In this document: one piece after another, positions 33,511-45,685 of the stretch
Numbering within the stretch: position 1 is the stretch's first letter
Layout: each line of letters starts with the position of its first letter
Origin: Eledone cirrhosa
Taxonomy: Eukaryota
Direction of reading: 5' to 3'
DNA: 64,000 bases
Assembly: GCA_964016885.1 (NCBI GenBank)
Contig: OZ024745.1
Coordinates: 39,866,001 to 39,930,000, forward strand
Made by a program: the position numbers and the translations under genes
Notes under the pieces: generated by a model
Told to the model about the DNA's origin: nothing
Databases searched by the model: none
The model's input: only the letters and a program-made list of their open reading frames with translations

Positions 33511-34558
33511 AATTAGAATTGGTGCTCTGAAATAGCGATATATATATGAATGTATATATAGTGTATTTTGCAATTCACTGTATGCTTAATTAAAAGCATT
33601 TCGAAGACCTTACACTATTGTTTTAGAGTAAGGACAGTCTCACTTACTTTAAATTTTCATCAAACAGGGGGAAATAAAGCTGACAGAGCTCTTTTTCGTA
33701 CTTTTTGGTACTTATCAAAGCTATGTACGCCACATGTTTGCTGAAAATCATGAATGTTTGATTCTTATAGAATTCTAGTAATAATCAGGAACTGATTATA
33801 CAGAGCGGTTGCCGGTCAAGCAGAAATTGAAAATTAGAATTGCTGCTCTGAAATGGCGATATATATATGAATGTATATATAGTGTATTTTGCAATACACT
33901 GTATGCTTAATTAAAAGTATTTCGAAGACCTTACGCTATTGTTTTAGTGTAGTGACAGTCTCACTTACTTTAAATTGTCAGCAAACAGGGGGAGATAAAG
34001 CTGACAGAGCTCTGTTTCGTACTTTTTGGTACTTATCAAAGCTAAGTACTCTACCTGTTTGCTGAAAATCATGAATGTTTGCTTCTTATAGAATTCTAGT
34101 AATAGAGCTCTGTCAGCTTTATCTCGCCTGTTTGCTGAAAATTTAAAGTAAGTGAGGCTGTCCCGAGTCTAAAACAATAGCGTAAGGTCTTCAAAATGCT
34201 TTTCCTTAAGCATACAGTGTATTGCAAAATACACTATATATACATTCATATATATATCGCTATTTCAGAGCACCAGTTCTAATTTTCAATTTCTGCTTGG
34301 CCGGCAACCACTCTGTATAATCATTTCCTGATGATTACTAGAATTCTATAAGAATCAAACATTCATGATTTTCAGCAAACAGGTGGAGTACTTAGCTTTG
34401 ATACGTACCAAAAAGTACGAAACAGAGCTCTGTCAGCTTTATCTTCCCTTGTTTGATGAAAATTTAAAGTAAGTGAGACTGTCACTACTCTAAAACAATA
34501 GTGTAAGGTCTTCGAAATGCTTTTAATTATGCATACAGTGTATTGCAAAATACACTAT
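33511..34558. repeat. Array of ~321-bp HHR-bearing units: about 2 copies on minus, then about 1.4 inverted copies
   Basis: Direct repeat with period 321 (33678 vs 33999), inversion junction at about 34104, and (TA)n on both sides. Confidence 0.9.
33999..34043 (-). ncRNA. Type I HHR with compensatory U3-A8 core (other copies: 33678-33722 minus, 34394-34438 plus)
   Basis: AGCT-TTGATAA-GTAC(CAAAAA)GTAC-GAAA-CAGAGCTCTG-TC-AGCT, with palindromic helix III and a GUC triplet. Confidence 0.8.
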
Positions 34559-34856
34559 ATATATATATATATATATATATATATATATATATATATATAT
34601 ATATATATATATATATATATATATATATGTAGAGGTTATATTTAATTTGTTGAGATTCAACAGGCTTAAACATTCTCTCTCTCTCTCTCTCTGTCTCTCT
34701 CTCTCTATATATATATATATATATATATATATATATATATATATATATATATATATATATATATATATATATATATATATATATATATATAGAGAGAGAG
34801 AGAGAGATAGAGAGAGAGAGAGAGATAGTTAGTTAGCGTTATTATCATCATTATAT

Positions 34857-35182
34857 AAGGGCGGTGGATTGGCAGTATCGATAGAGCGTCGGATGCCATG
34901 CTCCGCGGCATCCAGTTACGACCCTTTACGTTCTGAGTTGAAATCACACCGAAGTTAGCTTTGCCTTTCATGTTTATGGTGTCTTTAATATAATTGTTTC
35001 TACATTTGACACAAGGCCAGCAATTACCCAGTGCATTACTGGTACTTTATTTTATCGACCCCGTAAGGATGAAAGGCAAAGTTAACCTCGGCGGGATTTG
35101 AACTCACATCGTAAAGGGACGTATCTGTGCTGTAAAGCATAGCCTCCGACCCTCTACCGATACTGCCAATTCACCACCCTTT
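34857..35182. mobile_element. Two octopus-type SINEs, tail to tail (34857-34990 plus, 34995-35182 minus)
   Basis: Plus copy: GGCGGTGGATTGGCAGTATCGATAGAG...TTTACGTTCTGAGTTGAAATC. Minus copy includes TTTATCGACCCCGTAAGGATGAAAGGCAAAG...GGATTTGAACTCA. Confidence 0.82.
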
Positions 35183-35297
35183 AATATAATACACTGGTAT
35201 TGGTTTAATCGTCTATACCGTTCCCTTACAATTGCTTGCCTTGTGCCTATACTATAAATAGTTATTATATATATATATATATATATATATATATATA

Positions 35298-42869: not shown

Positions 42870-43025
42870 AGTAATAATAATAAATTTGAAGACTAAAATT
42901 CAAAGAGGGTTCGATAAGGATAAATATATATCAAATATATAAGAACCGTAGAGCAAATATTTATTAAAATAACAGATTAAAGTTTAAGCAAAGAATCGCT
43001 GCTTTCACCCTTAACGTGATCTTTC
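42870..43025 (-). repeat. Dispersed pLTR-like family; other copies at 54255-54520 (fold-back), 61710-61790 and 63360-63535
   Basis: Shared AAAATAACAGATTAAAGTTTAAGCAAAGAATCGCTGCTTTCACCCTTAACG, always abutting (TA)n. Confidence 0.85.
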
Positions 43026-44044
43026 ATAAATAAATGTATATATATATATATATATATATACATTATACATACATATATATAGACACACACACACATATAT
43101 ATATATGTGTGTGTGTGTGTGTGTGTTTGTGAGAGAGTGTGTGCGCGTGTGTGTGTATGTGTATATATCTACATAAGCAATTGCACACCCGCACGCACAT
43201 GCACACATACACATATACATATATATATATATATATATATGTATGAGATGTTTCAGAAAGGAAACAAGACAAGTTTCACCATAAACATTTACTGCATATC
43301 CAAACTAAAAACTACAAGTCCACCTCCTTCTAAATAACCTCCCTTGACTCTAACGCATTGTTCCAACCTTCTCCATGCACACTTGGAGGGAATCTCCATG
43401 GAATTTCCGGGACTCTCCGACATCAGGGCTCTCTTGAGAGATTCCATGCCCGCAAAATGTACATCCATGACTTATTATTGATGATGACTTCCCAACGAAG
43501 TCTAGTTCTGTTTCAGGACACTGGAGGTATCTTGGCATACCTGCATGCCACCTTCTTACAGGTTATCGCTTAGTAGCTTCGGAACCATCATCGGGCAGAT
43601 CTTCCGCTTACCTAAATCTTCGGTTGTCATCTTCCAAACTCTGTCGTGGTTCAAACCCAGGGCACATGCACTCAGTCGAACACTCAGCTGATGATCGCCA
43701 TGCACTATCGTCCCTTTTTCCTCTTGTGTGCCATTTGGACAACTGTGAGCGCTTTTTATTTATCACCAGAATGAAGTGAAAGTTAAGACTTGATTCATTG
43801 TCCTGCGCCCATCACCTAACACCCTATAATCGAGTAAATGGTAATAAATGCACTTGAAAAAAAAGCATAAAACGAGTGCAGATATCTGAGATCACAGTTA
43901 TAAATGCTACCAGCTAATCCCTGCCTCACTCATCTTTCACACAGCACACTAAGTCCTTTTACTGTTTTAACACACCCTGTATGTGTGTGTCAGGAGGGTT
44001 TATATATATATAAGTATATATATATAAATATATATATATATATG

Positions 44045-45685
44045 TATATATATATGTGAATATAGACATAGAATATTCGAAAATATTCTGTATGTTTATA
44101 ATAAACATTTTGAAGACCTAATCGCTATAGAATAGAATACGTCACGTATTACAATTAGATTCTCGATAAAAGCAAGGGAAGTAATCTACGCGTTTCATTC
44201 TTATTAGAAATCTTCAGGACCACATATCCAGTGCTTTTATCGAGAATGACACAGCTAGAGACTTATAGAATACTTAGCTGTGTACAGGAACTGGTTTGAA
44301 AGAGCGGTTGCCGGTCCGGCAGAAATTAGAAATTGGAATAAATGCTCTGAAATAGCGATATATATGTGAATATAGACATAGAATATTCAAAAATATTCTG
44401 TATGTTTATAATAAACATTTTGAAGACCTAATCGCTATAGAATAGAATACGTCACGTATTACAATTAGATTCTCGATAAAAGCAAGGGAAGTAATCTACG
44501 CGTTTCATTCTTATTAGAAATCTTCAGGACCACATATCCATTGCTTTTATCGAGAATGACACAGCTAGAGACTTATAGAATACTTAGCTGTGTACAGGAA
44601 CTGGTTTGAAAGAGCGGTTGCCGGTCCGGCAGAAATTAGAAATTGGAATAAATGCTCTGAAATAGCGATATATATGTGAATATAGACATAGAATATTCGA
44701 AAATATTCTGTATGTTTATAATAAACATTTTGAAGACCTAATCGCTATAGAATAGAATACGTCACGTATTACAATTAGATTCTCGATAAAAGCAAGGGAA
44801 GTAATCTACGCGTTTCATTCTTATTAGAAATCTTCAGGACCACATATCCAGTGCTTTTATCGAGAATGACACAGCTAGAGACTTATAGAATACTTAGCTG
44901 TGTACAGGAACTGGTTTGAAAGAGCGGTTGCCGGTCCGGCAGAAATTAGAAATTGGAATAAATGCTCTGAAATAGCGATATATATGTGAATATAGACATA
45001 GAATATTCGAAAATATTCTGTCTATATTCACATATATATCGCTATTTCAGAGCATTTATTCCAATTTCTAATTTCTGCCGGACCGGCAACCGCTCTTTCA
45101 AACCAGTTCCTGTACACAGCTAAGTATTCTATAAGTCTCTAGCTGTGTCATTCTCGATAAAAGCACTGGATATGTGGTCCTGAAGATTTCTAATAAGAAT
45201 GAAACGCGTAGATTACTTCCCTTGCTTTTATCGAGAATCTAATTGTAATACGTGACGTATTCTATTCTATAGCGATTAGGTCTTCAAAATGTTTATTATA
45301 AACATACAGAATATTTTCGAATATTCTATGTCTATATTCACATATATATCGCTATTTCAGAGCATTTATTCCAATTTCTAATTTCTGCCGGACCGGCAAC
45401 CGCTCTTTCAAACCAGTTCCTGTACACAGCTAAGTATTCTATAAGTCTCTAGCTGTGTCATTCTCGATAAAAGCACTGGATATGTGGTCCTGAAGATTTC
45501 TAATAAGAATGAAACGCGTAGATTACTTCCCTTGCTTTTATCGAGAATCTAATTGTAATACGTGACGTATTCTATTCTATAGCGATTAGGTCTTCAAAAT
45601 GTTTATTATAAACATACAGAATATTTTCGAATATTCTATGTCTATATTCACATATATATCGCTATTTCAGAGCATTTATTCCAGT
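44045..45685. repeat. Palindromic array of 310-bp HHR-bearing units: about 3 copies on minus, then about 2 inverted copies
   Basis: Period 310 (44181, 44491, 44801; then 45174, 45484), inversion centre at about 45010, (TA)n flanks. Confidence 0.95.
45174..45216 (+). ncRNA. Minimal type I HHR of the 310-bp unit (5 copies)
   Basis: GTGGTC-CTGAAGA-TTTCT(AATA)AGAAT-GAAA-CGCG-TA-GATTAC, with palindrome ACGCGT and a GUA triplet. There is a U.U mismatch at the base of helix II. Confidence 0.8.

Follow-up and report, generated by a model that had tools for sequence, protein, structure and literature searches.

A superfamily of dispersed hammerhead retrozymes with snRNA-type promoter motifs in Eledone cirrhosa

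Three tandem arrays, with units of 467, 321 and 310 bp, are located in the window, the 64,000-nucleotide stretch of Eledone cirrhosa DNA analysed here. We interpret them as dispersed, non-coding, non-LTR retrozymes of one superfamily, whose snRNA-type motifs probably drive transcription by RNA polymerase II (Pol II). Each unit is a short tandem repeat bearing a predicted type I hammerhead ribozyme (HHR), and several of its conserved motifs match the snRNA promoters of this same genome, spacing included. A promoter borrowed in this way would likely let the units make their own RNA and spread by a borrowed reverse transcriptase.

The 467-bp array occupies 1..19012 on the plus strand (x40.7, ~41 units) and extends upstream past the window start, where its inverted part and (TA)n flank lie (L098). 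The 321-bp family forms a divergent insertion, with a minus-strand part at 33511..34104 (its start was also put at 33509) and an inverted, plus-strand part at 34101..34555; the long (tail) 3' end of the former, at 33511, abuts (TA)n, and the short 3' end of the latter passes into (TA)n. The 310-bp insertion is also divergent: 3.1 units on the minus strand (44048..45021) end with the short 3' end in (TA)n, and 2.2 units on the plus strand (45012..45683) end with the long (tail) 3' end in (TA)n. The GC content of the units is ~0.30-0.36. No ORF of at least 120 aa was found within the 321 and 310 arrays, and Rfam gave no match at gathering score. The 310 family has 252 near-identical matches across many contigs. 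Motif searches returned 24,133 and 9,678 matches genome-wide, the former for the ATTCAYATA-N8-TATTTCAG pattern, whose reversed control gave 0, showing that the family is dispersed.

In all three units, the motifs named in the preliminary description occur in the order claimed, and helix III reads CTAG (467), CGCG (310) and CAGAGCTCTG (321), as was stated there. On the plus strand, the long stem with its hammerhead is at 496..591 in the 467 unit (core 531-555, predicted cut after 561), at 45150..45238 in the 310 unit (core 45180-45204, predicted cut after 45210) and at 34368..34463 in the 321 unit (core from 34398); the minus-strand part of 321 has copies at 33652-33750 and 33973-34071. Folding z-scores of the stem and HHR are -6.0 for 467, -6.2 for 310, and -5.3 and -4.1 for copies of 321. 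The perfect pair quoted for the 321 stem is a composite, with 1-2 mismatches in every single copy. The 321 ribozyme has the U3-A8 core (TTGATAA; TTGATAC in the plus-strand copy, in which hammerhead A9 is altered). CATACAG was also tried as a 3' box, and the match was not significant; judged by eye, it seems to form the 3' side of a hairpin, TGTTT..AAACA, that recurs across families.

That the stem is under selection for pairing is supported by covariation. In the alignment of 310 and 321 stems, 94.3% of cells are paired and 19 of 26 pairs have double changes (0/500 shuffles). A tree-aware test counted 34 same-branch co-changes against a null mean of 10.6 (maximum 22; 0/5000). The covariation takes in a swap of the core between C3-G8 and U3-A8; both cores segregate in one family (U-A in 14/23, C-G in 9/23), with 3 switches on the tree. 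The same natural covariation is described as active in vitro and as occurring in Penelope-like elements (PLEs) of Schistosoma (PMC3088659, PMC4209133).

Whole-unit alignments against 500 dinucleotide shuffles indicate that 310 and 321 are plainly homologous (z 18-19). The 467 unit aligns with 310 at z 6-7 (0/500) and with 321 at z 3.2 (1-4/500), and its profile score of 13.2 bits compares with at most 4.6 among 300 shuffles. When the stem and HHR are removed, neither alignment of 467 is significant (310: z 1.7, 22/500; 321: z 0.8, 111/500), a result that counts against the preliminary description. A covariance model (CM) trained on 310 and 321 only scored the 467 copies at 17310-18809 at 48.6-50.4 bits, family D at 33-36 and family E at 27-34; no other HHR locus exceeded 26. 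The alignment of 467 with family E reached z 16.5, and the regions downstream of the stem chain 467-E-310 at z 5.5-6.6 (also put at z>=6). The gap between ATTCAYATA and TATTTCAG is exactly 8 nt in all three units. We regard 467 as a probable distant member, joined to 310/321 outside the stem via intermediate families alone. The proposal of one structured-RNA family is supported by covariation, the CM and the linking families, with an indirect link only for 467. An unrelated 467 reaching a stem-supported hammerhead by convergence would fit the low pairwise scores outside the stem, but is very improbable given 49-50 bits against at most 26 in other HHRs, the chain via family E and the identical module order. 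In a metagenome scan of 118 stretches, 80 of which were run with the CM, the one weak match (E 0.023) was at chance level.

The promoter-like motifs comprise the distal TTAYYTCCCTT element of 310/321, the YCAG core, the octamer-like TATGCAAATKAG of 467 and the TATA box. In the 467 unit, the octamer-like element TATGCAAATTAG at the PSE position (430..441, plus strand; 17.1 bits, 0/500 shuffles) recurs each 467 bp, is followed 43 nt 3' by a TATA-like box (474..478, plus strand), and matches upstream elements of U6, U6atac, MRP and U3 genes in this genome. In the 321 unit, CCGG..CTCT, the PSE-position core and the TATAA box lie at 34301..34352 on the plus strand, with the core TATAATCA(G/T)TT at 34316-34326 and the box at 34344-34352; the U5 promoter of this genome reads TATAATCAGTGG at the core. 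The minus-strand copy keeps an intact ATCAGT core at 33790-33800, and a distal-element-like motif is at 34438-34451 (plus strand). The 310 unit has CCGG..CTCT, the core ACCAGT (45099-45108) and the TATAA box (45127-45135) within 45083..45135 on the plus strand. Its distal element ATTACTTCCCTTG (45212..45224, plus strand; 19.2 bits, 0/500 shuffles) is an exact copy of that upstream of one U6 gene. In 310/321 the distal element overlaps ribozyme helix I, in the 310 unit its 3' strand, and there the next unit's core is 199 nt further. The earlier suggestion of a promoter role for the short motifs gains support in that CCGG..CRCTCT lies immediately 5' of the PSE-position element and further motifs match snRNA promoters.

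The spacing and frequency of these motifs were compared with controls, in counts whose copies are not independent of one another. The distal element is present in 16 of 24 training snRNA genes and 7 of 9 held-out genes. At 10 bits or more, it follows the cut site in 28/28 copies of 310 and 40/60 of 321, against 2/64 other HHRs and 12/1500 in the background. In each of 21 tandem pairs it stands 197-202 nt from the core, compared with 200-215 nt in snRNA genes, and the best core position in the 321 family is -78/-79 in 38 of 60 copies. The octamer reaches at least 12 bits in 10/14 copies of 467 and 7/7 of family E, against 0/64 other HHRs, and the octamer+HHR pattern has 2,058 matches against 1 in the control. 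Among 28 family representatives less than 80% identical, a set chosen by having the octamer 12-mer, the 12-mer is kept and 19 have an octamer-to-TATA spacing of +42/43. The distal element is absent from 467 (0/14 copies) and family E (0/7) and reaches 10 bits in just 2 of the 28 octamer representatives; a pattern combining both elements gave 5 matches, an uninformative result.

In the reverse test, a profile of unselected retrozyme columns was run on 17 Pol II snRNA promoters; in 14 of them the PSE position came among the top 4 of 380 ranks, and the PSE of U1, U2, U4, U5 and U12 was located; the PSE regions of U3 and U11 were not ranked high. Taken by itself, core+TATA does not reach significance in either the 310 unit (4.2 bits, 206/500 shuffles) or the 321 unit (338/500) of the window. 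A second core+TATA match in 467, near window position 687 (16.1 bits, 0/500 shuffles), falls within a hairpin; one 467 variant has it in altered form, and it is missing from family E; we leave it as a possible alternative start site. The predicted transcription starts fall just upstream of the ribozyme. The best 3' box matches in the units (2.8-4.0 bits) were equalled by 67-137 of 200 shuffles; units without a 3' box are not snRNA genes and would fit with read-through.

Insertions of EN+ PLE clades are described as having an inverted 5'-truncated copy, a one-sided tail and a preference for (TA)n (Craig et al. 2021, PMC8557442). The window units, which have no ORF, share this anatomy: an inverted 5' part, a one-sided tail and a (TA)n target are all present. 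An inverted partner accompanies 32/33 segments of 310, 8/12 of 467 and 54/99 of 321 (a noisy count); 14 of 16 loci of 310 are divergent, and 30 of the 33 segments of 310 have a TA flank. Insertion 3' ends are bimodal, with two fixed ends, and the tail is ~26-36 nt in 310/321 and ~69 nt in 467; 5' ends show no clustering at the predicted start or the predicted cut site, and this weighs against our reading. In 310/321 the terminal ATTCAYATA-N8-TATTTCAG motif is flanked by the two fixed 3' ends (45336..45375 with a ~26-nt tail, plus strand, in 310); in 467, at 732..756 on the plus strand, it is ~38 and ~107 nt upstream of them. Recognition by a helper reverse transcriptase, proposed earlier for the short motifs, is plausible for this terminal region but not for the others. 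A splice-signal role is unsupported, as the 5' splice site is not conserved across families (GTAAGT follows the stem in most 321 subfamilies, not in 310, D or 467) and one 467 variant, reading TTTCCG, has no AG. The search for a helper took in a Neptune-like PLE family (32,692 candidates, the longest ORFs reaching 1213 aa) and an L327-type family (13,728 candidates), and both lack the motifs.

To understand how such units could spread, we propose that the PSE core and TATA box of each unit would be recognised by SNAPc-type factors; in 310/321 the distal element of the preceding unit, ~200 bp upstream, would assist them. The polymerase, meeting no 3' box, would continue through several units. 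The predicted hammerheads would then cut unit-length RNA, probably as dimers via the palindromic helix III, and the product could be circularised. Copying of this RNA into (TA)n would fall to a Penelope-like RT/GIY-YIG enzyme provided in trans, and would yield multimers, the inverted 5' part and the one-sided tail. Since the entire unit is copied around, the upstream promoter, otherwise untranscribed, would be restored before the next ribozyme, so that tandem or circular copying would regenerate an external promoter, a feature also cited for newt satellite 2. Expression of animal retrozymes is abundant and constitutive, an unusual state for retroelements. A housekeeping snRNA-type promoter would account for this, and also for the tandem units and the ~310-320 bp length in the 310/321 branch, as unit length would follow from ~200 nt distal-to-core plus 78 nt core-to-ribozyme plus the ribozyme. 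We suggest tentatively, as a possibility short of our expectation, that these units are a SINE-like class of circular-RNA retroelements, one that acquired its external snRNA promoter by capture and does not descend from a Penelope pLTR. If so, ribozyme circularisation would stand in for an LTR by rebuilding the promoter, one stretch would encode both a DNA enhancer and a ribozyme helix, and lineages would move between U1/U5-like and octamer-bearing layouts.

It is also conceivable, but rather unlikely, that these are ordinary retrozymes from the pLTR of a still unfound autonomous PLE, with snRNA-like motifs inherited from its promoter. Of 57 retrozyme families in Xenopus, 24 are reported to match TEs, mostly PLE pLTRs (bioRxiv 10.64898/2026.07.22.740005), the insertion anatomy is PLE-like, and our PLE sampling is limited to a few families. 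Against this, the retrozyme motifs, for which a check in pLTRs of autonomous PLEs had been proposed, were found in 0/29 Neptune-like and 0/29 L327-type 3' regions, and the four PLE 3' regions in the window align with the units like shuffles (z<=1.8). Nor, in any of 372 loci, does a unit supply an ORF with its 3' repeat; two fusions resemble chimeras. A search for chimeras with U6 at the cut site of 310/321 gave 0 matches.

An incidental likeness, with the motifs kept for RNA structure or RT binding and transcription coming by read-through from host promoters, seems distinctly unlikely to us. Helix I overlap means that RNA constraint could preserve the distal match, the 310/321 core is weak alone and AT-rich motifs are common; yet three separate motifs agree in order and spacing, the reverse profile recovers the PSE of five snRNA genes, the ~200-nt distance is constant while helix III and unit length vary, and the 12-mer persists in representatives that were selected for it. 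We consider it improbable, to a like degree, that Pol III transcribes the members with an octamer (467, D, E, F), with ends at T runs and without Pol II read-through. The octamer does match U6, U6atac and MRP, the long 3' end of 467 (unit position 332-333) coincides with a T5 run, and one U3 gene of like layout ends in a T run. However, octamer-to-TATA spacing is 42-43 against 44-48 (mostly 47-48) in U6-type genes, multimers of at least 40 units require read-through over T4-T5 runs, and the 310/321 core is of the U1/U5 type.

Metazoan non-LTR retrozymes are described as dispersed, low-GC, non-coding tandem repeats of 150-450 bp with type I HHRs, for which circRNA intermediates and a PLE helper were proposed (Cervera and de la Pena 2020, PMC7229834). 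The window units share these features, but differ in the long supporting stem, the snRNA-type motifs and the stereotyped inversion and tail; the available text of that study treats coral, mussel and axolotl, and mentions neither octopus nor any other cephalopod, nor a native promoter. The vertebrate retrozymes of Li, Clavereau and Pollet (bioRxiv 10.64898/2026.07.22.740005) are likewise non-autonomous, PLE-dependent tandem HHR repeats, with in vitro cleavage in only 1 of 9 tested in Xenopus; pLTR homology was found for them, whereas none was found for the window families in the PLE families tested. Molluscs are outside that sample, and its available text describes no promoter. In literature accessible without subscription, Repbase and Dfam aside, neither this family nor a retrozyme with an octamer promoter turned out to have been reported. 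Compared by description alone, the amphibian newt satellite 2 shares the hammerhead tandem repeat and an snRNA-type promoter, with Pol II transcription experimentally shown (PMC2220036, citing Coats, Zhang, Epstein 1994). In the window families, by contrast, the motifs are those of the host genome itself, distal element and ribozyme overlap, and diversification is far greater. If newt satellite 2 is the same solution, an snRNA promoter with a hammerhead would be a general design of animal retrozymes. The model yields exact, testable start sites and mutations, and the snRNA promoter elements defined here for this genome should be useful for small-RNA expression in cephalopods.

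The genome comprises 3.0 Gb, and the window contains three arrays flanked by (TA)n, with periods of 467, 321 and 310 bp, together with fragments of four Penelope-like ORFs, which we take to be such from their RT and GIY-YIG motifs (Pfam: RVT_1 and a weak GIY-YIG match). The short motifs named in the preliminary description, and their order in the three units, were borne out on inspection of the sequence. In every unit type a stable stem carries a type I hammerhead at its tip. The hammerhead core of the 321 unit is U3-A8, a natural variant known to be active (PMC3088659; PMC4209133).

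That pairing is kept while the stem sequence changes is supported by an alignment of 23 modules. These comprise the copies of 310 and 321 in the window, plus 21 representatives of <90% identity (of 22, one over-long extract being left out) that came from the 46 candidates, out of 50, whose stem is intact. In this set, which the choice of intact stems biases toward pairing, 94.3% of cells were paired, compared with 37-50% in slid controls, and 19 of 26 pairs were altered on both sides (0/500 shuffles). RNAalifold independently recovered the long stem and helices II and III of this alignment, and not helix I. On a tree built from the downstream sequence only, there were 34 same-branch co-changes versus 10.6 expected (0/5000), and the core pair switched between C3-G8 and U3-A8 three times. 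Counts for the long stem could be too high if templates were switched in hairpins or recombination took place; covariation is not limited to this stem and is also found in the core pair and in helices I and II.

As to the kinship of the three repeats, 310 and 321 are 75% identical across 178 nt outside the stem and can be aligned over their full length with many subfamilies, represented by 25 sequences, while blastn found no match of 467 to either. The whole 467 unit aligned above shuffles (z 6-7 against 310 and 3.2 against 321), but did not when the stem and ribozyme were removed (z 1.7 and 0.8). Genome sampling turned up additional families (D, E, F and others), of which E is close to 467 (z 16.5). 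Comparison of downstream sequence alone at z>=6 placed 467, E, D, 321 and 310 in one component (21 of 33 sequences), with the other 12 unlinked to it. A covariance model trained without 467 gave 48.6-50.4 bits for 467, 33-36 for D and 27-34 for E, compared with <=26 bits for unrelated hammerheads. The terminal motif near the 3' end (ATTCAYATA, eight nucleotides and a second motif) has 24,133 genome matches versus 0 for the control, and its 467-type version has 9,678.

The sequence ATGCAAAT, common to 467, D and E, leads to the snRNA genes of this genome. The 17 Pol II snRNA genes have in common AATTAA and a YCAG core (-56 to -59), which a TATA follows after 24-30 nt; the five Pol III genes have TATGSWAATKAG in common, located between -76 and -78. 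A distal element, TTAYYTCCCTT, is found at -257 to -288 in 16 of 24 genes and also in 7 of 9 held-out genes. The U1, U4 and U5 genes (e.g. loci L220-L225 and L282-L288) have Pol II snRNA promoters with a TATA-like box at about -30. In U3 promoters an octamer-like element and the core occur together. As one U3 gene terminates in a T run and both U3 genes checked lack the Pol II 3' box, U3 may be transcribed by Pol III in this genome.

Using matrices trained only on these snRNA-type genes, we found the distal element in 310 (19.2 bits, 0/500) and the octamer, at the PSE position, in 467 (17.1 bits, 0/500). The distal element of the window 321 unit scored 7.9 bits (23/500), and core and TATA scored on their own were not significant in 310 and 321. 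In the copies retrieved, the predicted cut site is immediately followed by the distal element in 28/28 of 310 and 40/60 of 321, versus 2/64 other hammerheads; this element is absent from 467 and E. The octamer is present in 10/14 of 467 and 7/7 of E, versus 0/64. In tandem pairs the distal element lies 197-202 nt ahead of the next core (21/21), whereas the corresponding distance in the snRNA genes is 200-215 nt. The octamer-then-hammerhead pattern occurs 2,058 times versus once in the control, and 19 of 28 representatives (<80% identical, chosen for the octamer) have a TATA at +42/43. Since one 321-type member (L365) retains the octamer, 310 and 321 likely lost it by a deletion of ~12 nt. Judged by spacing, transcription in all families would start 16-27 nt ahead of the ribozyme core. 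Of the roles suggested earlier for the short motifs, that of promoter thus finds a counterpart, at the sequence level, in the snRNA promoters of this genome.

A rival explanation is that this likeness is incidental. In a reverse test with a retrozyme profile from 20 columns not fixed by the octamer search, the PSE window came among the top four of 380 in 14 of the 17 Pol II promoters, where we estimate the chance level at ~13% and paralogues are not independent. It did not do so in U3 and U11, nor in the Pol III genes. A further rival is that Pol III transcribes the octamer branch. We consider the retrozyme family with snRNA-type promoter motifs to be real. Our best reading is that an snRNA-type promoter would drive transcription of the unit, the polymerase would read through past units, hammerheads would process the transcript, circularisation would follow, and PLE-mediated insertion would rebuild the promoter. 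The steps beyond the sequence features are modelled on known retrozyme biology, as discussed in PMC7229834. The 3' box of Pol II snRNA genes was not found in retrozyme units, which fits read-through.

As for mobility, 310 copies are near-identical on many contigs, with divergent inversions at 14 of 16 loci. Insertion 5' ends are scattered; 3' ends mostly abut TA and fall into two groups (unit positions 169 and 187-206 in 310, 177 and 198-213 in 321, 264 and 332-333 in 467). Inversion and tail match the PLE anatomy described in PMC8557442. The motifs, suggested earlier as signals for a helper RT, were absent from two abundant PLE families of this genome. The source of the retrozymes could instead be a PLE terminal repeat (pLTR) not yet seen, as a rival reading has it. 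Two loci, L327 and L115, fuse retrozyme parts directly to PLE RT fragments, and these possible template switches give only hints of the helpers.

Retrozymes, their PLE link and the snRNA-type promoter of newt satellite 2 (as cited in PMC2220036) are already published. The papers searched, bioRxiv supplements and repeat databases aside, gave no account of this family, of the way its promoter is laid out, or of a distal element overlapping the ribozyme.

At another locus, L248 (G000:C10:48072680-48072786, minus strand), a promoterless U6 copy runs from its U tail straight into what is predicted to be the 3' cleavage product of an L209-type hammerhead, followed by TA. This has the look of a chimera formed by RNA ligation, which would imply cleavage in vivo for that family. 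The 310 unit (window 45050-45400) appears as a single self-closing, unit-length contig in runs of several organisms (X4, X5, X10, X12, X17), yet not one read of it occurs in the genomic Hi-C data from organism B. The simplest explanation is that a very abundant sequence was carried over.

The window also holds a very abundant Neptune-like PLE fragment (38400-40400, minus) with its own hammerhead at 38612-38639; intact copies encode up to 1213 aa, a long Asn-rich insert included, and their start codon is likely in the terminal tail. A near full-length PLE (20150-24750, minus) has inverted terminal repeats, and pattern search found no hammerhead in it. A further repeat with a hammerhead, which does not belong to the superfamily and is unrelated to it, forms an inverted pair (35300-35470, minus; 36551-36720, plus). 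The PLE fragments at 46586-48182 (plus) and 57811-58280 (minus) resemble the Hydra clade, and the second has a hammerhead after the endonuclease.
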